NCBI GenBank assembly: GCA_963769885.1
Contig: CAVYNH010000005.1
Span: 96,001 to 160,000 of the forward strand
Source of the DNA: Methanobacteriota archaeon
GTDB lineage: Archaea; Thermoplasmatota; E2; DHVEG-1
DNA: 64,000 nt
Direction of reading: 5' to 3'
In this document: piece by piece, positions 51,748 through 64,000 of the stretch
Layout of the letters: each line of letters starts with the position of its first letter
How positions within the stretch are numbered: the stretch's first letter is position 1
The notes under the pieces: model-generated
What the model was told of the DNA's origin: nothing
Databases searched by the model: none
Seen by the model: only the letters and a program-made list of their open reading frames with translations
Translations under genes and position numbers: made by a program

Positions 51748-53460
51748 TTGAAGCTGACCCTGAAGGTTCTCATCGGCAACCTCTTGTTCATTGCGGTCTT
51801 TTTCCTCATCATTGCGAGGATTTTTTCCGTCGTCTCTGGCGCCGTGTTCCCGGTCGATATTGTGACCTCGGATTCCATGAGTCCGTCGCTGATAACGGGG
51901 GATCTGGTCACCTGGTCGCCCGCGTCCATTCAGGACGTTAAGGTCGGGGATATCGTCGTCTATAAGAGCTGGCTGCACTGGCCTGACACGAAGTTCATCG
52001 TGCACCGCGTCATCGAGGTCCGCGAGGACTTCGGCAAGATCGCGCTGGTCACCAAGGGAGACGCGAACCGGTGGACCGACCAGGCTGGGCCGCATGCGCC
52101 CGAGCCGTACGTGACCGAGAAGAACTTCGTCGGTAAGGCGATCATGCTCGGCCCTGTGCCCTTGAAGATCCCGTTGGTCGGCTACGTTGGCATCCTGGTC
52201 AACGAAGGTTTCCGATTGTTGACGCAGTCCTCGGCGGCGAAAGGGACCTCGACGACGATCTGGGTCTTCACGCCCCTGACCGTGTCCGTCATCCTCCTGG
52301 TCATCGCCATCTTCCTGGTCCCTGAACGCCGGAAGACCATCCAAGAGAAAATCAGGTACTACATCCTGAGTTCACGGTCCTTGAACCTGAAGAAAACCGC
52401 CGTGTTCTTCTTCCTCCTGTTCACCGCCTTCTTCTTCATCATCCATCTGTTCGCGTATGATACGGTGACGGGGGCGGTCGGCGTCGGCGAATTCGCCTCA
52501 AAGAATGGCATGGACCTTGGGGCACTGGAGCCGGGGCAGACCGGGTTCCCTCGGGAGATCTCCGTTGTCAATCCTAGCGTTTTCCCTGTCAAAGGCATTA
52601 TCTTCGGGAGGCAAGGCATGGAGCCGCTCCTCAATCACGTCGTCTTCACGGTGGGAGCAGGTAAGATCAAGCCACAGAACATCTCCGCCTCCGTCCCAAA
52701 CGGGACCGCGAACGGCTCGTACGTCGGCGACATCGCCATCTACTCCTCCCCTCTCTGGCTGCTCTTCCCAGACGAGGTCCTACTCACGGTGTCGCAAGCA
52801 GACCCCAGCCTCGTGGTTATTATTCTGGATCTCATCAGTGCCGCGATCCTCACGGCGGTCACACTCCTGATCATCCTTGCCGCTGCCCTACTCGAGGAGA
52901 CGGCCTACGTTCTCCAGGTCAATCTCTCCTGGCACTATGCCCCACGGCCGATGCTGAAAACCCGATGGAGAGCGCGGATTGCCCATGCGCGCCTCCGATT
53001 TCGCCGCGGACTGGCGAGGAACGTCCTCTGGGTAAGCCAGGTAAACCTCGCGTCGCTGCAGGCGCGGCCGTTCCTGATCGGCGGCCTCATCGCCGTCCCC
53101 TTCTTCTTCCTCATGCAAAGCACGCTTACAGCTTTGGTGGTCGCCGCGGTCCTCGCCGGGCTGGTCGCCTACCTCTTTCGCTGCCGGCTGCGGGAAAAGA
53201 TCGTCCTTGCGGTCGTCATGTCCCTGTGTGTCTCCCTGTGTCTGCTCATGGGCAAGATCGGCTTCGACATCCTCACCGCCTCCCGCTCGGTCATAGAGAC
53301 CCTCGGGCTGGTCATGGGCGCGCTCGGGATTTATCTGCTCGTCGTCGCGTTCCTGCTCGTTCCTGTGGTCCTGACGTCGTGGGGGCTAACGCACCTCTGC
53401 CGAAATGTTAAAGAACAGCGTGACCCATTACTGGCCCTGGAGGGTGGATGCGACCTCTAA
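51748..53460 (+). CDS. Signal peptidase I (S26B) with large C-terminal membrane and extracellular extension
   Basis: SDSMSP, GDL, IVHRV, TKGDAN, followed by about 380 extra residues. TTG start with a GGAGGTG RBS. Confidence 0.88.
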   Translation: MKLTLKVLIGNLLFIAVFFLIIARIFSVVSGAVFPVDIVTSDSMSPSLITGDLVTWSPASIQDVKVGDIVVYKSWLHWPDTKFIVHRVIEVREDFGKIALVTKGDANRWTDQAGPHAPEPYVTEKNFVGKAIMLGPVPLKIPLVGYVGILVNEGFRLLTQSSAAKGTSTTIWVFTPLTVSVILLVIAIFLVPERRKTIQEKIRYYILSSRSLNLKKTAVFFFLLFTAFFFIIHLFAYDTVTGAVGVGEFASKNGMDLGALEPGQTGFPREISVVNPSVFPVKGIIFGRQGMEPLLNHVVFTVGAGKIKPQNISASVPNGTANGSYVGDIAIYSSPLWLLFPDEVLLTVSQADPSLVVIILDLISAAILTAVTLLIILAAALLEETAYVLQVNLSWHYAPRPMLKTRWRARIAHARLRFRRGLARNVLWVSQVNLASLQARPFLIGGLIAVPFFFLMQSTLTALVVAAVLAGLVAYLFRCRLREKIVLAVVMSLCVSLCLLMGKIGFDILTASRSVIETLGLVMGALGIYLLVVAFLLVPVVLTSWGLTHLCRNVKEQRDPLLALEGGCDL

Positions 53461-53481
53461 CGGTGAGGGTGATGCAGTAAA

Positions 53482-54504
53482 ATGCCTCTTTTAAAGCGAA
53501 AGACTGTCCCCGCATCGCCCGTCTCATCCGACTCGCCTGCACTCTCGAATCAGTTGTCTCGATTTCAGCGTCGAAAGCCCTCCGCGACCCCGCAGGAGCC
53601 GCAGACGCCCAACGAGACGACCTCGTCTGATGCCTACTCATTCCTTGACTCCGAGCAGCCTGACCAGAACGCCTTTGAGGACCTCGGAGACCTACCAACG
53701 ACCACGGCGCCGAAGCGGCCGGCCTACTGGCAGAAGGAGATGGCCGGCAAACCCGTGTTCCTCGAAGACACCGGGGAGCGGCTCGGCGAGGTCGCGGACC
53801 CCATCCTCGACGCGGAACAGCACCTCATCGGCTACCGGATCAAGGACAACAAGTCCGACGCCGTCCTCAGATTCCCCCTCGAGCAGTTCGACGAAGACAA
53901 GAACGGCCTCATCTTCGTCCCCAGCTGGTACAGCAAAGGTGTCAAGACCGTGGAGAAGCTGGAGTTCAAAGACCGTATCACCCCGGAGCTCATGTGGCTG
54001 ATCACGGACAACACCGTCCCGATGCAGGACCTGTACCGCGTCTTCGTCCGCCATGACGATACTATCACAGGGTACTTGGAGGAGGCCGGTAGCCTCCGCG
54101 AACTGCTCACCCAGCGCCTCCGGATTCTGGAAAAAGAGCGGCTGTCGCTCAAAGAAAGCCTCATGGACCTCACCGAGAAACGCCTCATCAAGGACATCGA
54201 CCGCAGGGAGTTCTCCGACATCATCATCGAGCACCGCCGCAAGGTCAACGTCCTCGATAACAACATGAAGAAATGCAGCGACCTGCTCGCCCGTCTCCAA
54301 AAAACGTCCTTCGGCATGCTCAGCCTCGCACTCCACGCCGCCACCGCACCCTCACCAGGTCCTCACACGGACCGCGACCCGACCACAGACCAGGCCTACC
54401 AAGAGAAATACAACCAGCTCAAACAACAGTACGCCAAACTGCACGAGGGCTACGAAGAACTGAAGACCGCCGTGGAACGCCTCCTGACCAGCACCGACGT
54501 CTAA
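53482..54504 (+). CDS. PRC-barrel plus coiled-coil protein, CdvA-like
   Basis: GKPVFLEDTGERLGEV..I.GY PRC pattern, LIFVPSW, then two helical hairpin/coiled-coil segments. Confidence 0.75.
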   Translation: MPLLKRKTVPASPVSSDSPALSNQLSRFQRRKPSATPQEPQTPNETTSSDAYSFLDSEQPDQNAFEDLGDLPTTTAPKRPAYWQKEMAGKPVFLEDTGERLGEVADPILDAEQHLIGYRIKDNKSDAVLRFPLEQFDEDKNGLIFVPSWYSKGVKTVEKLEFKDRITPELMWLITDNTVPMQDLYRVFVRHDDTITGYLEEAGSLRELLTQRLRILEKERLSLKESLMDLTEKRLIKDIDRREFSDIIIEHRRKVNVLDNNMKKCSDLLARLQKTSFGMLSLALHAATAPSPGPHTDRDPTTDQAYQEKYNQLKQQYAKLHEGYEELKTAVERLLTSTDV

Positions 54505-54597: not shown

Positions 54598-57500
54598 ATG
54601 TCGGACGATTTTCATACAGAAGCCAAGGAAAAACCGACCACCGGCCAGGACACCGCGCACTTCATCCTCAACAGCCGTGGCGAACTCCTCGACGCCAGCG
54701 ACGCCTTCTGCCGCCTGGCCGGCAGACGCCGCGATGCCCTCATCGGCACCACCCTGGAAGACGCTGGACTTCTCACCGACATCTCCGCCAAGGCGCTCCG
54801 CCGCCGCCACGTCTCTGTTCTCATCGGCAAAGCACCTCACACCTACACCCTCGAAGTCCGCGCCAAAGACGGCGGCATCTCCCTCCTCCACATCGACTCC
54901 ATCCCCTACCTCAAAGACGGCAGACTCATCGGCGAGCTCGCCACCGTCCACAGCATCACCCCCCAACCCCCATCCACCGACCAACCACTCACGACCATGA
55001 CGACTGAGCCGCGCCCAGGCACCGACCCCACCGCGATCCTCCAAGACCGCCTCGAAGACCAACACCACAAACTCCACCAGACCCAACAGAAACTCCGCAA
55101 GGCACTTCTCGACCTCGAAACCAAGACCTCACACATCCAAGGGCTCCAAGACGAGCTCGACGACACCGAACAGCAGCTCCGCCAACGCCTCCACGACCTC
55201 GACGACGCCACCAAACAACTCAGACAACGCCAATTCCTCCTCGACCAAAAAGATCAAGAACTCACCCGCCTCCGCGACGACCTCACCGCCGAGACCAGCC
55301 AACACCAAACCAAGAACATGGAACTTGAACACCTCAACGCCAGGCTTCAAGACGCCCTCACCACCGCCGAAAACCTCGGCGAAGACCTCACAGAGGCCCA
55401 GCGACTCCTCCTCCAGAAGACCCATGACGCCGACCAAAAGGCCGCCGAGATCAAAAACCTCACCGGCCTCCTCGAGGACACCCGTCAGACCCTCGCCGCC
55501 CTCCAAGCCGAGCAAGAAGGCATCATCGAAACAAACCAGGCGCTCACCAGCCAACTGACTCAAACTCGGCAGGACGCCGAGACCACCGCTGACACGCTCC
55601 GGCAGACCCAACAGCAGCTCCAAACCAAAGACCAAGACCTCGCCGCCGTCCAGGCCGCGCTCCACGCTAAAACCCAAGCACTCGCCGAGCAAACCATCCA
55701 CTTCACCGAACTCCAAGAAGCCGTCCGAAGCCTCCAGGAGACCATCGCCGAACTCCGTCAAGCCCACACCGACAACGAAACCGCCCTCGCCGGCCTCACC
55801 CAACGCCTCACCGAAAAAGACCAAGTCCTCCAACAAGCAGCCCAGGACCTCGACCGCACCCACGCCGAAACCCACACCCTCCTCGGCAAACTCGACAGCA
55901 GAGAAAAATACATCAGCTACCAAAACAACCAGCTTGACCGCTACGTCCACCAACAAAACATACTCACACAACAACTCAACGACCTCACTGCAGCCCTAGA
56001 AAAACAGACCGCGGACCACCACGCCACTGTCCTCGCCCTCGACCACAGCCACGATGAAACCGATCTTCGCACCGCCGAGATCCGCCGACTGTCCCGCCTC
56101 CTCGCCGACGCCCGACGCCACGCCGACGCCATCACCATCGATCTCGCCGACACCAAGACCCACGCCCTCGAAACCACGGCACAGCTCCAAGACCGACTCA
56201 CCGAACTCCACGCCCTCCAAACACAGCACCACGACCAGGAGGACGCCATCACCCGCCTCCGAAGTCAGATCACCGAACGGAACACCATCATCCAACAACT
56301 CACCGACCAGGTTGAAAACCTTCACCAGGCCGCGGCAGCCGCCGCCCACGACCACGACAGCCTCGCCACCGCCCTCACCGACACGAAAGACGAGACCAAC
56401 CGCCTCCAGGACGCCCTCACCCAAAAAGAAGGCGACCTCCGAGACAAAGACGCTGAAATCACCGACCTGCGGACAGCGCTGCGGACCGCAGAACACCACC
56501 TCAAGACCATTACCCAGACCGCCACCTGCCTTGAACAAGAACTCCAGAAAAAAGACGCAGTCCTCGAACAAAAAACCGACCTCATCAACACCCTCCAATC
56601 CGACCTCGAAGACCAACACCGAGACCTCCAAGAACACCTTCGCCATGCAACCCACCTCCACACTGAGTTCACCGATACCCAACACCTCCTCGCCGACCTC
56701 CAAAAAGAGATAGCCGAAACCACCGCCGTCAGCGCACTCCTCCAAGAGCAACTCACCGCCACAACTGAGGACCGTGACCACCACGCCCAACTCCTCACTC
56801 AGACTACCCAAGACCTCCAAACCCGAACCCACCTCCTCGACACACAGACTGAGGAACTCACCCGCCTCAAGGCCGACCTCGCCAAATACACCCAAGACCT
56901 CGACCACAGCCATCAACGCATCATCGAACTCGAAACCGAGCTTGAAGAAAAAACGACGGCCCTCGACGACACCACCCGACTCCTCACCCAAGCCACACAA
57001 GAAGCCCAGGCACGCACCCAAGAGGTCAGCGAACTCACCGCCGGCCTCAACGCCCGCAACCGCGAACTCGACCAACAACTCCAACTCATCGCCACCTTCA
57101 AACAAGAATCATTCGATAACCACCTCAGCCTCACCGGACTCAACGAAGAACTCGCCGCCCGCCAGCACGAGCTCCAAACACAGACCGCAGCCCTCACCCA
57201 ACTCCAAGAAACACTCACCGCACTCCAGAAAGACAACGCAGACCACACCGCCCTCATCGCCATCCTCAAAACCGAACAAGCCACCAAACAAGCCCTCCTC
57301 GAACAACAGACCGAGGCCCTCACCAGACAACGCCACGAGCTCACCCACCTCCACGACAACCTCGACGCTCAAAAACACCTCCGAGAAGAAACAGACCAAA
57401 GACTCCACGAGACCCTCACCCAACTCCAAACCCACAAAGACCACATCTCCAAACTCTCCACTGAGCTTCTCGCCAAAAACCAACAACTCCAAACCATCGA

Positions 57501-60500
57501 ACAGACCCTCCAGCAGCACCAACACGACCTCCAAGAAAAAACACAGCTCATCCAACACACCCACCACCAACTCGCAGACCTCGAAAAAGAACTCCACAGC
57601 CACCACCAAGAAATCAACGACCTCCACCACTCCCTTGACGAACGCAACCAAATCATCGCCGACCTCACCGGCCAACTCACCGACACCCAAAGCAGCCTGC
57701 TCCAAGAGGCCAAGGCCGCCGACACTCTCAACGACAACCTCACCAACACCAGAACCCTCCTCACCCAGACCCAAGCAGAGCTGGAAACTAGCCACCACCA
57801 GCTTCACCAGGCCAAGAGCGACTGTGAACGCCTCACCGAACAGCACACCGCCCTCACCGCCGAACTCCAACGAATCACCACAGAGCTCGCCGCGCAACAC
57901 CTGGCATCCCAAAAACAAAAAACCGAACTCAAAGACCTTCAAACCGAGATCCACACCCGAGACTTCCTGATCTCCGACCTCACTCATCAACTCACCAAAG
58001 AACAGACCACAATCACCCAAAAAACCCAAGAAAACCAGACGTTAACCGAGGAGCTCGCCCGCACATCCGAACTCCTCCTCCAAGGTCAAGAATCCCTCAC
58101 CGCCAAACAAAATGAACTAACAGAGGCCACGCAGACACTCGACGAGCTCACCACCACCATCCAATCACTTAAAGAAGAGATAGAAACCCGGGACATCATC
58201 ATCAGCGACCTCACCCAACAGGCCAGTGAAGAACAATCAAAACTCGTCACCACCGCAACCCAGATCGAAGACCTCACCAGAGAACTTACCGAAACCCAAG
58301 ACAGGCTACACGGCAGCCAAACCGCAGGCCTTGCACAGGAAGCCGAGCTCACCCGACTTAAGGAAGAACTCCACGACCGCCTCCAGGACCTCGCCTACCG
58401 CAACAACGATCTCAACGACCATAAGGCTCGAATCAACCAGCTCAGCACACAAATCGAGACCCAAGCCCAGGCCCTCCAGCAGGATCAAGCAGAACTCGCA
58501 CGCCTGAACCAACTCAACCGCCAACAAGCTCTCGACCTCAAACAGGCGCGCGAGGAGACTGAAAAACAATGGATGGAATTAGTCCTCAAGAACATCGACA
58601 TCCAGGATAAAAGCGAACTTATCACCGAACTCAACGAAAAAATCACCCAAGACCAACAGATCATCACTATAGCAGAGAGCGACTTCCAGACCAAGACCAC
58701 GCATCTCTCAAGCCAAATCCAGGACCTCCAGAGTACACTGCAAAACACCCGGACCATGCTCGAACAATCCACCGACGAAATCCAAAGCCTCAACCAAGAG
58801 ATCATCGGAAAGGACCGGCTCCTCCAAGACCTCAGCCGACAACTCAGCGACGAACAGACCTCCCTCATCGAGACTGTCTCAAAAAAACACCAGCTCGAAT
58901 CGGAAGTCGAGGTACAACGACAGCACAATGAGACGCTGCAGGGAACGCTCCGTGACAAAGAACAACACCTCCACCAAATCGAGGAGGCTCTCAAGTCCAG
59001 CGAGCTTCAACTCACGGACCTACAACGGGAACTCACGGGTAAAACTCGAGACCTCGAGATCGCCACAACCGAGTTGACCGCCAGGGAGGACCATCTCGAG
59101 AAACTGCAAGCCTCCCATACTTCACTTCTCCAAGATGACGAGAGACTGAAAAAGCAACTCGAGGACCTCACACTGGAGAAGCAGAACCTGCGATCATTGC
59201 TCGACAGCATCGAACAAGGAAGCGCCTCCTCCATCATCATGACCGATGCCAAAGGCATCATCACCTCGTGGAACCCGCGCGCCGAGCAGCTGTTCAACAT
59301 GCCCGTCACCTCCGCAATCGGACGACAGCTTACAGACCTTCCATTCCTCAAAGACGCCCTCTCAAATACCGTGAACATCCTCACAAAGACCTCTGAACAT
59401 TCGATCATCATCAAGAACCAGCGGAACGAGGAGCTCCTCACGGATATCTCACGGATTCCTCTGCTCAACGACGTCGGAGAAGGTTATGGGTCTCTCATCA
59501 TCATCGATGATGTTACACCGATGGCTGGGTTGCATGCAGAACTCTGTAAAAACAAGGCGGATCTTGAGGCGCTCAGCAATCGCTATCAACAATCCTTCAG
59601 AAAAATGGCGATTGCCGAGAAGGAGCTACAGGAGAACGAAACCGAGTTGCGTGTTAAAAAGCAGGCTCTTGCTGAACAAGCCCAGGAGATTTCGGGGCTT
59701 CAGAAGGAACTCGAGCGTCATTTTGAGGTGGTGAAAACCAAGAATTCGCAGTTGGAGCAAGTGGTTAGAACCCTTCAAGAACGAGACTCGGAACTCGATG
59801 AGTTGCGTCAGAAGACCACCAATGGCCAAGACGAGCTCCTGCATGCCAAGAACCTTATTGCGAATCTGGAAAACGAGCATCATCGAACGGTCGATGAGCT
59901 GCATGATGTTTCGACAAAGTTGAAGGAAGCACAAAAGGAAATCATAAGATCCGAGGATCTATGCCAGAGGTTCCAGGCGCACCTCCTCAAGCAACAATGC
60001 GAGGTGAGCCAAAAGGAGCTTGAGATTAAGACCCTGGGGGATAGCGCTGAGAATCGGACGAGGGAACTGGAGATTGTCACGAAGCGGCTTGAGGACAGCA
60101 CGCTGCAGCTGTCGGCCTCTACAATCAGGATTGAGAGAGCGGAGAAGGATTTGAAGAAACGAGAGGAGGAAGCATTGCTTCTCCGCCAGCAGGTAAAAGA
60201 AAGGCAGACCGTACTTCTCAGGGTCACTGATGAGAGAGACAACATCGTGCAACAATGTGAAACCCTGAAGACCGACCTTGTTTCTGCTCGGAAGGACATG
60301 GAGGAGCTCTCGAGTGAATTAAAGGCGAATAAGGCATCGGTGCTTTGGTTCAAGACGGAACTTGAGGGGACGAAGGAAACCTTGCGGCTCAAGGAGAACG
60401 ATGTGCATGTGAGACTTGCAGAAGCGGAGGATCTGCGAAAACAAATCGGTGAGCTTAAGATTGCTCTTCTTGAAAGGAACCATGACGTAGAACACGTACG

Positions 60501-61575
60501 GGAGGAGGTCGAGGGCCGGCAACAGCAGATAGGCATCCAGGAGCAGATTGTGCAGGAGTTAAAGAAACAGCTTGCGGCACGGCAGGTCCAGGTGAAGCAA
60601 CGAGAGGATGAGCTGTGGCAAAAGACCCAGCTCATCGAGAATTTAAAAGGCGAGCTTGAACGTTATCAGCAGCGAATCTCGGACCTTGAGAGTTCCTCGC
60701 TGGAGCAGGAAAAGGAGGCGGCGCAACGCAGCTCGGTGCCGGCGCTGAAGACCCAGGAGATCAGCGTTTTACAGGAAGAACTGGAGAAAATCACCGAGAA
60801 GCTCCGGGAAAGGGACGGGGAAATGCTCGAGGTTCGGAAACAGTTGGAGGCTGCTCGCTTGGAGGCAAACAAGAGGAAACTGGAGGTTGAGGATCTCAGC
60901 CTCAAGTGCCGTCTAATTCAAAACGAGATTCCTTCATCTGTGATCATGGTGGATGAGAAGAATCAGATCGCAGCGTGGAACAAGAGGGCGGAGATGCTGT
61001 TGGGTGTGGAGGCGAAGAAGGCGATTGGTTGCGACTTGTTCAATTTGTCGTTCATGGAGCGGGAGCGGCTGCGGGAGGGCTACGCCCAGAGTGTCTCGAA
61101 CCGAAGGGATGTGACAATCAAGGCGATCATCTTTCCCTCGTCGAATGAGGAGAAGGCCTTGGTGGATGTCACCATCCATCCGGTATTTGGTGAGGCAGGA
61201 AATCCTATGGGTGCACTATTGGTCATGGATGATGTGACGAGCCGGGTGGCGGTCGAGGCGGAGCTTCATCGGAAGGAGGCTGAGGTCGGTGAGTTGAATC
61301 AGCGGTTGGCGGATTCGTTTAAGAAGAATGTGTTGTCGGCGTTGGAGGGGGATGCGTCGAAGCGTCAGGCGGTGGGTGAGGTGGCGCGGCCGGCGTTCGA
61401 GGATCGGACGGTGATTGCGGGGGATTTGTCGGTGGTGGCGTCGCGGCGGCCGGCTGAGGAGGGGCCGGTGGATGAAGCGTGGCAGGAGCGTGTGCGGGTG
61501 TGCGGGGAGATCGAGCGTCGGTTGGATGAGGCGGGGGTGGTGAAGGTGAAGAAGGAAAAGGAGGAGGGGAAGTAG
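54598..61575 (+). CDS. Giant (2325 aa) coiled-coil protein with three PAS domains
   Basis: PAS motifs at about aa 20-120 (ILNSRGELLDAS), 1535-1640 (IMTDAKGIITSWN...DDVT) and 2105-2215 (IMVDEKNQIAAWN...DDVT), with heptad-rich sequence between them. Confidence 0.88.
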   Translation: MSDDFHTEAKEKPTTGQDTAHFILNSRGELLDASDAFCRLAGRRRDALIGTTLEDAGLLTDISAKALRRRHVSVLIGKAPHTYTLEVRAKDGGISLLHIDSIPYLKDGRLIGELATVHSITPQPPSTDQPLTTMTTEPRPGTDPTAILQDRLEDQHHKLHQTQQKLRKALLDLETKTSHIQGLQDELDDTEQQLRQRLHDLDDATKQLRQRQFLLDQKDQELTRLRDDLTAETSQHQTKNMELEHLNARLQDALTTAENLGEDLTEAQRLLLQKTHDADQKAAEIKNLTGLLEDTRQTLAALQAEQEGIIETNQALTSQLTQTRQDAETTADTLRQTQQQLQTKDQDLAAVQAALHAKTQALAEQTIHFTELQEAVRSLQETIAELRQAHTDNETALAGLTQRLTEKDQVLQQAAQDLDRTHAETHTLLGKLDSREKYISYQNNQLDRYVHQQNILTQQLNDLTAALEKQTADHHATVLALDHSHDETDLRTAEIRRLSRLLADARRHADAITIDLADTKTHALETTAQLQDRLTELHALQTQHHDQEDAITRLRSQITERNTIIQQLTDQVENLHQAAAAAAHDHDSLATALTDTKDETNRLQDALTQKEGDLRDKDAEITDLRTALRTAEHHLKTITQTATCLEQELQKKDAVLEQKTDLINTLQSDLEDQHRDLQEHLRHATHLHTEFTDTQHLLADLQKEIAETTAVSALLQEQLTATTEDRDHHAQLLTQTTQDLQTRTHLLDTQTEELTRLKADLAKYTQDLDHSHQRIIELETELEEKTTALDDTTRLLTQATQEAQARTQEVSELTAGLNARNRELDQQLQLIATFKQESFDNHLSLTGLNEELAARQHELQTQTAALTQLQETLTALQKDNADHTALIAILKTEQATKQALLEQQTEALTRQRHELTHLHDNLDAQKHLREETDQRLHETLTQLQTHKDHISKLSTELLAKNQQLQTIEQTLQQHQHDLQEKTQLIQHTHHQLADLEKELHSHHQEINDLHHSLDERNQIIADLTGQLTDTQSSLLQEAKAADTLNDNLTNTRTLLTQTQAELETSHHQLHQAKSDCERLTEQHTALTAELQRITTELAAQHLASQKQKTELKDLQTEIHTRDFLISDLTHQLTKEQTTITQKTQENQTLTEELARTSELLLQGQESLTAKQNELTEATQTLDELTTTIQSLKEEIETRDIIISDLTQQASEEQSKLVTTATQIEDLTRELTETQDRLHGSQTAGLAQEAELTRLKEELHDRLQDLAYRNNDLNDHKARINQLSTQIETQAQALQQDQAELARLNQLNRQQALDLKQAREETEKQWMELVLKNIDIQDKSELITELNEKITQDQQIITIAESDFQTKTTHLSSQIQDLQSTLQNTRTMLEQSTDEIQSLNQEIIGKDRLLQDLSRQLSDEQTSLIETVSKKHQLESEVEVQRQHNETLQGTLRDKEQHLHQIEEALKSSELQLTDLQRELTGKTRDLEIATTELTAREDHLEKLQASHTSLLQDDERLKKQLEDLTLEKQNLRSLLDSIEQGSASSIIMTDAKGIITSWNPRAEQLFNMPVTSAIGRQLTDLPFLKDALSNTVNILTKTSEHSIIIKNQRNEELLTDISRIPLLNDVGEGYGSLIIIDDVTPMAGLHAELCKNKADLEALSNRYQQSFRKMAIAEKELQENETELRVKKQALAEQAQEISGLQKELERHFEVVKTKNSQLEQVVRTLQERDSELDELRQKTTNGQDELLHAKNLIANLENEHHRTVDELHDVSTKLKEAQKEIIRSEDLCQRFQAHLLKQQCEVSQKELEIKTLGDSAENRTRELEIVTKRLEDSTLQLSASTIRIERAEKDLKKREEEALLLRQQVKERQTVLLRVTDERDNIVQQCETLKTDLVSARKDMEELSSELKANKASVLWFKTELEGTKETLRLKENDVHVRLAEAEDLRKQIGELKIALLERNHDVEHVREEVEGRQQQIGIQEQIVQELKKQLAARQVQVKQREDELWQKTQLIENLKGELERYQQRISDLESSSLEQEKEAAQRSSVPALKTQEISVLQEELEKITEKLRERDGEMLEVRKQLEAARLEANKRKLEVEDLSLKCRLIQNEIPSSVIMVDEKNQIAAWNKRAEMLLGVEAKKAIGCDLFNLSFMERERLREGYAQSVSNRRDVTIKAIIFPSSNEEKALVDVTIHPVFGEAGNPMGALLVMDDVTSRVAVEAELHRKEAEVGELNQRLADSFKKNVLSALEGDASKRQAVGEVARPAFEDRTVIAGDLSVVASRRPAEEGPVDEAWQERVRVCGEIERRLDEAGVVKVKKEKEEGK

Positions 61576-61584
61576 GGGCTGGGT

Positions 61585-62196
61585 TTAAGGGTAGAGGGTG
61601 ACGAGGCTGTTGGTGGTGTAGGGGACGTCGAAGGTGAAGGTTTGTTGTTGTCCGGGGGTGGGGGTGATGGTGAGTTGGAGGGTGTCGTAGGGTCGTAGGT
61701 AGGTTTGTTCTGGGAGTTTGACGAGGAGGAAGCCGGCGTCTGTGTTTTTGTTGAGGGTGTGAGCGGCGAGGGCGGAGCCGTCGTCGTCCGTGATCATTTG
61801 GATGGTGAATGACCCAGGTTTGAATTGGTCCCAGGCGGGGTTGTGGAAGAGGGCATTGGTGGGCTCGTCTTTGGGGACGTCTCGGTAGGGGAGGATGAAG
61901 GCGTCGTCGGGGAGGGTGAGTTGGAGTTGTATTTTGGTGAGGTCGATGGTGCCGGTGATGAGGGGGCGGATGTGGATGGCGAGGCGTTGGATGCCGTTTG
62001 GGGTGTCGTATTTGCCGATGATTTGGTCGATTTTGAGGTAGGTGGTGAGGTCGTTGGTGATGTCGGTGACGGCTTGGTCGAGGGCGTTGTTGGCAGTGGT
62101 TTGGTTCTTGATGAAGATGGAGCCGGCGGTGGCGCCGATGGCGATGACGGAGGTGATGAGGACGATGGGGAGGAGGCCGAGGGTTGCGTCTGACAT
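61585..62196 (-). CDS. Divergent archaellin-like protein
   Basis: N-terminal hydrophobic helix, ITNDLTTYLKIDQIIG, LAIHIRP, IDLTK, DDDGS. These align by eye with the adjacent archaellin. Confidence 0.7.
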   Translation of the reverse strand: MSDATLGLLPIVLITSVIAIGATAGSIFIKNQTTANNALDQAVTDITNDLTTYLKIDQIIGKYDTPNGIQRLAIHIRPLITGTIDLTKIQLQLTLPDDAFILPYRDVPKDEPTNALFHNPAWDQFKPGSFTIQMITDDDGSALAAHTLNKNTDAGFLLVKLPEQTYLRPYDTLQLTITPTPGQQQTFTFDVPYTTNSLVTLYP

Positions 62197-62421
62197 AGGT
62201 GCTCTGGGTGTTGGGGTTGGCGGGCGGCTTTATATGTCTTATTGAACAGTTGGTACCGAGGGTAGGGGGCTTCTCCTGGTTTTTCAGTGGTTTCGGTTTT
62301 TTTTGGTTTTGGGATTTTTCCGCCATACGATTAAATAATTGGCCGTGTGAAACATTTCCACGATAGTCCTTGTCCTGGCATCAGGTCGCAAGGATAACGA
62401 AAGAACAGAAGGTGAAAGGAA

Positions 62422-63279
62422 ATGGAAAAACGGTATATGGAAAGGCTGGTAGGCAGGTACTGTAAAATCGTGACCAAGGAACCTGGCGAAGACCGCGCCA
62501 GTGTCGTCACAGGTGTTCTCGAAGATGTTGACTACAAAGACGGGTTCCTCATAATCGATTCCTCCCAGGGCCTCGGTTGCCTGCGCATGGACACGGTGAT
62601 TGCCATTAAACCAGGAACCAAGCGCCAACCCGAGAGGAAGCCCCTGAAAAAAAATGCCCAGGCCGAGGTCGGTATCGGCACCCTCATTGTGTTCATCGCA
62701 TTAGTCCTCGTCGCAGCGATAGCGGCAAGCGTCATCATGCAGACTGCTGAGACCCTGCAGCAGCGGGCCTATGCAGTCGGTAAACAAACCATCCGTGATG
62801 TATCCAGCGGTATTCGAATTATTGGTGTCACTGGATACACAGACGTCAACAAGACCAAGGTTGATTACCTTGCCCTCGCAATCACTCCCCGCGCTGGATC
62901 GTACGATATCGATCTGAACAAGACTCTCCTCTATCTCCAACTCGACAATTTTACTATCCTAAGCCTGAACCCGAATGCCAAAGCAGGCACGGTCGCGCAA
63001 GGCGGGGTGTTCTCGACCCTCAACCTCTCCCAACTGAACGCCACGAACTATGGGCTCATCTCTATTCATGACTCCGATAATTCAATTATGAATAGCAACG
63101 GTATTAGCACTTCGGATCAGGCAATGCTCATTGTGAACCTCACGGCGGCCCTCCCGATGACTCAGGGTCTGAGAGCAGGGGACACCCTGGAAGGTAAAAT
63201 CGTCCCCGAAGTGGGGGTTAGCGGTATCTTTGTAGTTAACGCGCCCAATGCCTTTAAATACCGCGTGGTCGAGGTTTAA
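62422..63279 (+). CDS. arlB: Archaellin (FlaB/ArlB) with 81-residue N-terminal leader
   Basis: QA|EVGIGTLIVFIALVLVAAIAASVI, VSSGI, PRAGS.DIDL. GAAGGTGA RBS before the ATG. Confidence 0.93.
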   Translation: MEKRYMERLVGRYCKIVTKEPGEDRASVVTGVLEDVDYKDGFLIIDSSQGLGCLRMDTVIAIKPGTKRQPERKPLKKNAQAEVGIGTLIVFIALVLVAAIAASVIMQTAETLQQRAYAVGKQTIRDVSSGIRIIGVTGYTDVNKTKVDYLALAITPRAGSYDIDLNKTLLYLQLDNFTILSLNPNAKAGTVAQGGVFSTLNLSQLNATNYGLISIHDSDNSIMNSNGISTSDQAMLIVNLTAALPMTQGLRAGDTLEGKIVPEVGVSGIFVVNAPNAFKYRVVEV

Positions 63280-63467
63280 GGAAGAACTCATACGACAAGA
63301 GGCGGAATTTCGCCTCCCCTTCTCTTTCTTTTTTTCTCCAGAAAAGCATCCTCTCAATTTGACAGAATGCCGTTTTGCTGTTCAACCCGAGCATCTATAA
63401 ATACATTCACCAGCGAACCATACTTGCTACATGCTGGCAAACAGCATGGGAACGAAGGTGAACGAAA

Positions 63468-64000
63468 ATGGAACGCAAGAACATGGAAAGGCTCATCGGA
63501 AACTATTGCAAAATCGTAACTAAAGAACCCGGAGACAACCGCGCCAGCGTCATCACCGGCTATGTCGAGGATGTCGACTACAAAAACGGGTTTATCCTCG
63601 TCAACTCAGCCCAAGGACTCGGGTGTCTACGCATCAACACCGTCGTCGCTATAAAACCTGGGACGATGCGACCGGATAAAAAGAAAATTTTCATCAATTC
63701 ACAGGCCGAGGTCGGCATCGGCACCCTGATTGTCTTCATCGCCTTAGTCCTAGTCGCAGCCATTGCTGCGAGCGTTATAATGCAGACTGCAGAAACCCTT
63801 CAACAACGGGCGTACGCGGTCGGAAAACAAACTATCCGGGACGTCTCTAGCGGAATCCGAATCATCGGCGTCACCGGATACACGGACACTAACAAGACCA
63901 AGATCGATTACCTTGCCATCGCCATTACTCCCCGCGCCGGATCCTACGATATCGATCTGAATAAGACCCTCCTCTACCTCCAACTCGACAACTTCACCAT
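63468..64000 (+). CDS. arlB: Second archaellin with 80-residue N-terminal leader, truncated by window edge
   Basis: Not in the ORF track. Manual translation: MERKNMERLIGNYCKIVTKEPG...NSQA|EVGIGTLIVFIALVLVAAIAASVI. Same RBS as the first copy. Confidence 0.93.
   Translation, partial: MERKNMERLIGNYCKIVTKEPGDNRASVITGYVEDVDYKNGFILVNSAQGLGCLRINTVVAIKPGTMRPDKKKIFINSQAEVGIGTLIVFIALVLVAAIAASVIMQTAETLQQRAYAVGKQTIRDVSSGIRIIGVTGYTDTNKTKIDYLAIAITPRAGSYDIDLNKTLLYLQLDNFT

Follow-up and report, generated by a model that had tools for sequence, protein, structure and literature searches.

A deeply diverged CdvA homologue paired with a large signal peptidase in an FtsZ-carrying Thermoplasmatota archaeon

Background

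In the Cdv division system, CdvA has been regarded as the non-ESCRT component, diagnostic of the system and specific to TACK archaea (PMC11188069). The 64,000-nucleotide stretch of archaeal DNA analysed here (the window) contains a gene for a CdvA-like protein as the middle one of three same-strand genes (Table 1). This raises the question whether the likeness reflects real homology to CdvA and, if so, what such a protein does in this genome. The initial annotation, made from the letters alone, had proposed a CdvA homologue of putative Thermoplasmatota origin, redeployed as a scaffold beside archaellin genes.

Results

The gene and its family

The 340-aa reading frame exists as annotated, and the two strings quoted for it lie at residues 140–150 (DKNGLIFVPSW) and 209–254 (LTQRL...EHRRK). 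A word-indexed search returned at least 289 homologues, nearly all of them without a name or with the label "PRC-barrel domain-containing" or "hypothetical". The named ones all derive from Thermoplasmata/Thermoplasmatota MAGs, in agreement with the proposed source. In an alignment of 58 members, which share 58–95% identity with the window's protein, a core of 199 residues runs through all 58 sequences with zero gaps. On the strength of this ungapped core and the number of homologues we count the gene as real. The genome examined comprises 2.09 Mb on 7 contigs and is 92% complete. All organisms that carry the family are uncultured.

Table 1. Features of the locus and their positions within the window
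Feature	Position	Strand	Details
Signal peptidase gene	51748..53460	+	570 aa; directly upstream of the CdvA-like gene
Intergenic spacer	53461..53481	+	21 nt; between the peptidase and CdvA-like genes
CdvA-like gene	53482-54504	+	ATG start; 340 aa
Disordered N-terminal region	53482..53730	+	residues 1-83; pLDDT <50 (1-82)
Acidic PRC barrel	53731..53922	+	residues 84-147; pI 4.5
Three-helix coiled coil	53923..54345	+	helices 148-288; core pLDDT 82-95 (AlphaFold2)
Pro-rich linker and heptad helix	54346..54504	+	residues 289-340
Giant coiled-coil/PAS protein gene	54598..61575	+	2325 aa; begins 93 nt downstream of the CdvA-like stop codon
Start of the archaellum region	61585..64000	mixed	Pfam PF01917 matches
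Archaellin-like gene	61585-62196	-	
Archaellin gene	62422-63279	+	~80-aa leader
Archaellin gene	from 63468	+	~80-aa leader

Domain organisation

An AlphaFold2 model of the CdvA-like protein, built from an input alignment of 58 sequences, bears out the architecture that had been read from the letters: a disordered N-terminus, a PRC barrel, helices and a separate C-terminal coiled-coil helix. The N-terminal region is variable in length (29–150 aa across the alignment) with conserved ends. Family-wide it starts with M-x-hydrophobic-F/L-K-K, and a second basic motif consists of a K/R-rich patch followed by IGF (RFQRRK in the window's protein). The barrel itself is modelled with six strands at residues 91–145, and its LEDTGE and QFDEDK motifs are invariant. 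It passes into the coiled coil at a P-x-W junction (P147, W149), whose two named residues are at least 90% conserved among 52 diverse relatives, one true CdvA among them. The junction that the initial annotation had pointed out is thus a shared signature.

Within the helical domain, the near-invariant hairpin tip LMDLTEKRLIKDIDRR.FS is the most invariant stretch of the whole family, and it bears the mapped filament-contact positions discussed below. The linker that follows (289–301) is variable and modelled at low confidence. The protein then ends in a single heptad helix (301–338, pLDDT about 95), about 38 aa long and with Tyr or Leu at its core positions, which is conserved in all 58 aligned relatives and repeated three to four times in three homologues (P0045, P0055, P0076).

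Homology to CdvA

Two Pfam profiles match the protein, both below their gathering thresholds, yet in the correct order: PRC at residues 86–125 (E 6.6e-4, 20.1 bits, cut-off 21.2) and CdvA (PF18822) at residues 171–275 (E 8.1e-4, 19.8 bits, cut-off 30), the latter spanning profile positions 7–111 of 123. Searches with the single sequence were uninformative, since the PDB returned only an SMC4 coiled coil (E 0.13) and an NCBIfam scan gave no relevant match, so that a family profile was needed to assess homology. With an HMM of the 199-residue core, the top match in the PDB was CdvA (9s9g_A, E 2.9e-4), aligned collinearly from core positions 17–193 to CdvA 23–200. Against 1.84 billion representative proteins, the same HMM found 100 proteins, including P0212 (E 3.9e-6; core 14–191 against P0212 21–200). 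This protein scores 127 bits on the Pfam CdvA profile, and its close relatives are annotated CdvA-like proteins from Staphylothermus, Desulfurococcus, Thermosphaera and related Desulfurococcales. A further relative, P0219, is from the Promethearchaeota.

Profile and structure comparisons gave the same picture. With hhalign, the family core aligned with a profile of 20 true CdvAs at a probability of 97.1% (E 5.2e-11), over 187 columns and with 24% identity. In a Foldseek search with the model, the top nine matches were all S. islandicus CdvA (E 8e-9 to 2e-7, TM 0.71–0.74 over about 187 columns), after which came bare PRC barrels, aligned over 68 columns with E about 1e-3. Reciprocally, a phmmer search of every stop-to-stop ORF of the genome with S. 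hellenicus CdvA recovered the CdvA-like ORF alone. The protein contains the N-terminal PRC barrel of the CdvA fold family and, collinear with it, a three-helix coiled coil homologous to PF18822. It is a genuine, deeply diverged CdvA homologue over both domains. The homology claimed at the outset is found again in the PDB profile search, the search of 1.84 billion proteins, hhalign and Foldseek, and it goes beyond a generic PRC barrel, since the CdvA alignments of about 187 columns cover both domains.

We also computed a quick tree of the core from 66 rows, rooted at the midpoint; its branches are long. In it, a single long branch with a support of 100 unites the true Desulfurococcales CdvAs, and this clade is grouped with four unplaced relatives at weak support. 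Opposite this CdvA-holding group stands a 52-row radiation that contains the window's protein. Such a topology would be compatible either with an ancient origin of the CdvA-like family or with its transfer.

ESCRT partners and division genes

True CdvAs carry a conserved PVVVLE-type C-terminal tail, the E3B peptide, which binds CdvB. This peptide is missing from the window's protein and from all 58 aligned family members; as the initial annotation had it, the protein ends in a coiled coil, here the 38-aa helix. On two counts the protein therefore falls outside the CdvA orthologues (arCOG04054): E3B is absent, and no cdvB or cdvC was found in its operon, in the genome or near the gene in 45 related loci. 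The canonical cdvA-cdvB-cdvC operon is present in locus L061. Profiles for Snf7, Vps4_C and MIT had zero matches in the 92%-complete genome, a phmmer query with CdvB gave no genome match at E up to 10, and the sole genome match of CdvC was an 860-aa Cdc48-like double AAA protein. In view of the completeness and of the Snf7 profile, which is weak for archaeal CdvB and stayed below its cut-off in a Sulfolobus control, we regard ESCRT-III and Vps4 as not found rather than as proven absent.

It is conceivable that the protein is a conventional CdvA that still recruits ESCRT-III and Vps4, both missed through incompleteness or divergence, and a minimal Vps4/ESCRT-III system does occur in some Thermoplasmata (PMC11188069). 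The empty searches, the 45 loci and the lack of E3B throughout the alignment make this explanation extremely improbable.

The genome carries two FtsZ (FtsZ1 and FtsZ2) and SepF, as well as a number of short, CdpB-like PRC-barrel ORFs (100–144 aa), from which we conclude that the organism has the standard euryarchaeal FtsZ division set. The genome-wide search for cdvB/cdvC and ftsZ/sepF that had been suggested thus gave no CdvB or Vps4 and both FtsZ and SepF, and the reported lack of adjacent ESCRT-III and Vps4 genes extends to the rest of the available genome sequence. The CdvA-like protein is itself no CdpB: unlike that single PRC barrel of about 100 aa, it comprises 340 aa and includes the CdvA helical domain. 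A second long PRC ORF (contig C6, 428 aa) was considered as a paralogue and ruled out upon inspection of its architecture, PRC followed by MgtE_N and CBS.

The upstream signal peptidase

The first ~150 residues of the protein encoded upstream form a Sec11/SipW-type (S26B) domain. The profile TIGR02228 (sigpep_I_arch) scores 78 bits on this protein against a cut-off of 51.85, and the best Foldseek matches of its model are human SEC11A/C (7p2p/7p2q, E 2e-5, 31–33% identity); the comparison also included 4N31, the pilus chaperone-peptidase homologue SipA of S. pyogenes. Among 20 peptidase homologues, S43, H86-R87 and G104-D105-x-N107 are invariant. Beyond this domain extend another 380 aa, for which the model predicts TM helices, an extracellular beta-sandwich (~237–334), an Arg-rich cytoplasmic helix (~403–427) and a terminal TM bundle. 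The extension had no clear Foldseek match, which leaves the Sec11 domain as the only part explained. The C-terminal tail ...DPLL.LEG.CDL-COOH is conserved in the same 20 homologues.

The spacer between the two genes contains the Shine-Dalgarno-like GGTGAGGGTGAT, which ends 9 nt before the ATG of the CdvA-like gene. A complex prediction with the full peptidase (own alignment) and the full CdvA-like protein gave a score of 0.00, a value that carries no verdict on binding.

Conservation of the gene pair

We compared the neighbourhood in 29 close loci from species-representative genomes, all of them Thermoplasmata/Thermoplasmatota MAGs, in which the CdvA-like protein is 46–61% identical. The peptidase gene lies directly upstream in 25 of them and the giant gene downstream in 27; archaellins follow in 17, that is, wherever the contig is long enough. 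A distant subfamily is represented by 16 loci (33–37% identity, no long N-terminal tail). Here the peptidase again lies directly upstream in 10 of 16, often with a 4-bp gene overlap, and neither the giant gene nor archaellins accompany the pair. Secreted signal-anchor proteins, one of them with a DUF2341, are encoded directly upstream in these distant loci.

The two genes are also inherited together. Among 197 genomes of the class, 58 have the CdvA-like core together with the peptidase extension, and 129 have neither. The core occurs alone in seven: in five as a distant PKD-type paralogue, in one as a fragment at a contig end and in one as a decayed copy. The extension occurs alone in three, one of them the sister species of the window genome, where a contig end interrupts the locus. 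As related genomes are not independent, these counts describe a pattern and are not a statistical test. The co-occurrence extends to lineages in which no archaellins were found. The operon-level, co-inherited pairing of peptidase and CdvA-like gene thus outlasts every other neighbour. We take the conserved adjacency of the pair as functional linkage, not as evidence of binding.

The archaellum neighbourhood

The gene downstream, preceded by the Shine-Dalgarno sequence GGGGTGAGG, encodes a giant protein with three PAS modules, one of them at its N-terminus, and it neighbours the CdvA-like gene in the window's own taxonomic family alone. Beyond the window, the contig (C5, 157–176 kb) continues with arlC/D/E-like genes, arlF, G and H, two arlI, arlJ and four arlB. 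The archaellins are not directly adjacent to the CdvA-like gene: they lie 7 kb downstream, past the gene for the 2325-aa protein.

In line with the initial annotation, the protein could be an archaellum-specific scaffold, which together with the giant rod would anchor or organise the motor in the manner of a polar cap. Locally this is attractive, because the order peptidase, CdvA-like protein, giant PAS rod, archaellin-like protein, archaellins recurs in 17–27 of the 29 close loci and a complete arl cluster directly follows in the window genome. The phyletic pattern points elsewhere. Nearly every genome in the window's family has ArlJ, and 37 of 107 have the CdvA-like gene; one genus has ArlJ in 12 of 12 genomes and the CdvA-like gene in 0 of 12. 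Conversely, the gene pair is kept in two families of the distant subfamily in which ArlJ matches (4 of 13 and 15 of 25 genomes) are all weak (E about 1e-6 to 1e-8) and probably non-orthologous, and five genomes of these families, 95–99% complete, contain no match to the archaellin profile PF01917. Rod and archaellins are missing from the distant loci as well. The archaellum link is lineage-specific, confined to the window's own family, and as a general explanation, archaellum dependence was rejected on this pattern. An archaellum-specific role is hence distinctly unlikely. The phrase "beside archaellin genes" describes a neighbourhood of one family, in a group where many archaellated relatives lack the gene, and the pairing with the peptidase is deeper.

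A link to the FtsZ division machinery?

The protein could also be an accessory of the FtsZ divisome, its barrel docking to SepF or to a short CdpB-like PRC protein, in the way of haloarchaeal CdpB1–3, and its coiled coil forming a mid-cell scaffold that brings in the peptidase. PRC-barrel proteins of Haloferax act in division and pair mutually (10.1101/2023.03.28.534520), the A. fulgidus PRC1/PRC2 heterodimer 8onw is among the fold matches of our protein, and CdvA is a mid-cell ring protein (PMC12818579). Possible partners are at hand, with FtsZ1, FtsZ2, SepF and at least two short PRC proteins in the window genome and two FtsZ in each of the five distant carriers mentioned above. However, the distribution of the family is patchy (41 of 401 genomes of the phylum, and about a third of the window's own family, as given above), none of the examined loci has the gene beside ftsZ or sepF, and its conserved neighbours are the peptidase and secreted proteins, with no division genes among them. 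We therefore consider a divisome role unlikely. In view of the occurrence in 41 of 401 genomes, the module of CdvA-like protein and peptidase is an accessory system, not a core division machine.

Fusion proteins and filament contacts

Some relatives carry the core as part of larger proteins. In the distant subfamily, it is fused to a PAS domain (239–334) and a HisKA domain (352–408), a combination seen in at least 4 of the 52 diverse relatives. In others it is combined with Zn ribbons, or a membrane anchor links it to a PKD domain outside the cell. These fusions fit a portable membrane-proximal module for oligomerisation and docking.

The PAS-HisKA forms could be taken to mean that the core is a signalling adaptor, which as a dimerisation and input domain would pass the state of the membrane peptidase complex on to PAS/HisKA outputs. 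A response-regulator gene directly follows the CdvA-like gene in one locus, and in the window genome the next gene begins with PAS. On the other hand, no HATPase domain was detected in the fused forms, the window's CdvA-like protein has neither PAS nor HisKA, and PAS is too common to be informative by itself. Taken together, we find a signalling role quite unlikely. The idea that the giant gene arose by fission of such a fusion was rejected, the fused PAS showing no specific similarity to the N-terminal PAS of the giant protein.

CdvA polymerises into double-stranded filaments through hydrophobic coiled-coil contacts, and for true CdvA, multimer structure prediction reproduces the filament (PMC12818579). 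Filament formation by S. islandicus CdvA is abolished by mutating A90, L94, I100, I149, M153 and I156, which make longitudinal contacts (PMC12818579). In the alignment of our core HMM with 9s9g_A, the counterparts of these residues are E169, L173, V179, M228, E232 and L235, a mapping that is made at 14–24% identity and may be one turn off. Four of them (L173, V179, M228, L235) are invariant or conserved hydrophobics, while E169 and E232 are invariant glutamates. This is suggestive of self-assembly of the CdvA-like core.

Discussion

A scaffold working with a signal peptidase

The best reading of these data, to which we assign a probability of roughly 0.55, is that of a CdvA-fold cytoplasmic scaffold or adaptor that works with the signal peptidase and is uncoupled from ESCRT. 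We favour it because of the pairing with the peptidase and the putative CdvA-style self-association at the membrane. The core would dimerise or polymerise at the cytoplasmic face of the membrane, as CdvA does. It might be held there by the basic and hydrophobic motifs of its N-terminus, by the peptidase through its cytoplasmic loops and its conserved C-terminal tail, or by both. In this position it could organise the dedicated peptidase together with the surface proteins that the peptidase processes. The C-terminal heptad helix, which takes the place of the recruiting peptide of CdvA, would be the likely recruiter of coiled-coil or PAS partners, i.e. the giant rod in the window's family and the fused PAS-HisKA pair in others. 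Through the giant rod, the module may have been set beside the archaellum in the window's lineage.

Implications

The presence in FtsZ-dividing Thermoplasmatota of a diverse family with the full CdvA fold, lacking the ESCRT-binding tail and closely linked to a membrane signal peptidase, shows the PRC/coiled-coil scaffold to be a reusable module and ESCRT recruitment a separable add-on to it. The pairing of a CdvA relative with a large signal peptidase, in an FtsZ divider without detectable ESCRT, suggests that the scaffold fold of CdvA also serves a purpose other than ESCRT-based division. The family is a natural comparison for the roles of the CdvA core (membrane attachment, polymerisation and partner docking), and it bears on whether CdvA already existed when ESCRT- and FtsZ-based division parted. 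In addition, it indicates a putative, so far undescribed cytoplasmic partner of a dedicated archaeal signal peptidase. More speculatively, CdvA-type filaments might be an ancient membrane-proximal cytoskeleton of pre- or non-ESCRT character, here serving as a signal-peptidase or secretion platform and, in the window's family, also as an archaellum tether via the 2325-aa rod. We hold this to be a long shot; if true, it would provide the first molecular candidate for the cytoplasmic structure beneath euryarchaeal archaella.

Comparison with known systems

In the literature searched, we found neither CdvA-like proteins of this kind from Thermoplasmatota nor an association of them with a signal peptidase; the one connection between CdvA and Thermoplasmatota was the minimal Vps4/ESCRT-III system of Thermoplasmatales, which is unrelated. 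The obvious reference is the crenarchaeal and thaumarchaeal CdvA itself (arCOG04054, PF18822 plus PRC), for which S. islandicus structures are available (9S9G/9S9H/9S9I; Drobnic et al. 2026, PMC12818579). Compared with it, the CdvA-like protein has a heptad helix in place of E3B and an additional disordered, basic N-terminus of 30–150 aa. Its gene sits after that of a signal peptidase, no cdvB or cdvC was detected in its operon or in the 92%-complete genome, and its host has FtsZ and SepF. Identity to the solved structure is only 14%, and polymerisation, which CdvA undergoes, is putative in the CdvA-like protein.

Thermoproteales encode CdvA-like proteins away from the cdv operon (arCOG03733 and arCOG03734), and Bathyarchaeia have additional ones (Makarova et al. 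2024, PMC11188069). The principle of a CdvA-like protein without ESCRT partners is thus already known. Like the family described here, those proteins combine the CdvA fold with added segments, there a Zn ribbon or Glu-rich tails, and relatives of the Thermoplasmatota family likewise include Zn-ribbon forms. However, they belong to TACK archaea and were proposed as division components, whereas the present family occurs in Thermoplasmatota alongside a complete FtsZ set and is coupled to a signal peptidase.

The Haloferax proteins CdpB1/2/3 are bare PRC barrels of about 100 aa that are recruited by SepF (10.1101/2023.03.28.534520; 10.1101/2023.03.28.534543). Our protein resembles them as a PRC barrel in an FtsZ-dividing archaeon with a possible adaptor role. 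It differs in its full CdvA helical domain, and the genome has short PRC proteins of its own.

For the peptidase, a parallel is the tapA-sipW-tasA operon of Bacillus, which encodes a dedicated Sec11/SipW-type signal peptidase. We know of no SipW/Sec11 operon that includes a cytoplasmic CdvA-fold protein, nor of a SipW/Sec11 peptidase with a 380-aa multi-TM extension of this kind. What the present system shares with tapA-sipW-tasA and SipA is a specialised S26 peptidase encoded together with surface proteins, which in the distant subfamily correspond to the secreted-protein genes upstream.

Conserved tail of the extended signal peptidase

The alignment of the peptidases encoded upstream of the CdvA-like genes (A5) showed that their C-terminus is kept in both the close and the distant subfamily. 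It reads RNVKE..DPLL.LEG.CDL-COOH in the former and D-P/Y-x-x-x-L-E/K/R-x-C-D-L/I in the latter. This tail is an obvious candidate for a docking peptide. Its P-hydrophobic-hydrophobic-x-L-E stretch loosely resembles the PVVVLE-type E3B tail, the CdvB-binding peptide of true CdvA, although this likeness may be due to chance.

At the other end of the gene, the peptidase frame was open and query-like 5' of the first ATG, GTG or TTG in several related loci (L016, L023, L025, L026, L032 and L037). The peptidases of these loci may use an unusual start codon, or the sequences may contain sequencing errors.

Features of the peptidase tail, the CdvA-like relatives and the other genes discussed (L, loci; P, proteins; G000, genome of the window)
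Feature	Location	Remarks
Conserved peptidase C-terminus	window 53392-53457 (+)	alignment A5
CdvA-like core + PAS + HisKA fusion	L044:9949-11187; also L042, L043, L056
Stand-alone response-regulator gene	L056:9971-10354	directly 3' of the CdvA-like fusion gene
CdvA-like core in long PKD-branch proteins	L048:8858-10483; L049:5417-7222	P0164, P0168, P0173, P0179
Archaellin genes with N-terminal leaders	window 62422-63279; 63468-64000
PRC barrel + MgtE_N + CBS protein	L058:2305-3591 (G000, contig C6)	428 aa
Short PRC-barrel ORF	G000:C6:262042-262254 (L059)	144 aa
Cdc48-like AAA ATPase	G000:C6:262383-264962 (L059)	860 aa

Other contexts of the CdvA-like core

Two further families within the class have the CdvA-like core joined to PAS and HisKA domains; a HATPase domain is absent from these fusions (L042, L043, L044 and L056). 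In L056 the fusion gene is followed by the stand-alone response-regulator gene, and next come genes for DNA polymerase D large-subunit-like proteins.

A separate branch consists of proteins of 540–620 aa with an N-terminal signal anchor and the core at the C-terminus. Four of the five PKD-carrying relatives fall into this branch, and the PKD domain was confirmed directly in P0164. The genes are surrounded by those of secreted proteins, without the peptidase.

P0205 and P0219 represent a relative of the core, 244–282 aa long (E 1.1e-8), that is annotated as originating from a Promethearchaeota (Asgard) MAG. It gave no Pfam match, and a long branch makes its placement in the quick tree unreliable. 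P0169 (736 aa) combines the core (residues 20–200) with a bacterial DnaA-type ATPase domain (371–530) and could be a chimeric assembly.

Archaellum genes and other PRC-barrel proteins of the genome

The N-terminal leaders of the archaellins are about 80 aa long and look folded. Beyond the window, two full-length ArlI genes lie in tandem, followed by ArlJ (G000:C5:165355-168632).

The PRC-barrel protein with MgtE_N and CBS domains, considered as a possible family member, proved to be unrelated to the CdvA-like family. The short PRC-barrel ORF directly adjoins the Cdc48-like ATPase gene, the same PRC-Cdc48 neighbourhood that has been reported from other archaea (10.1101/2023.03.28.534520).
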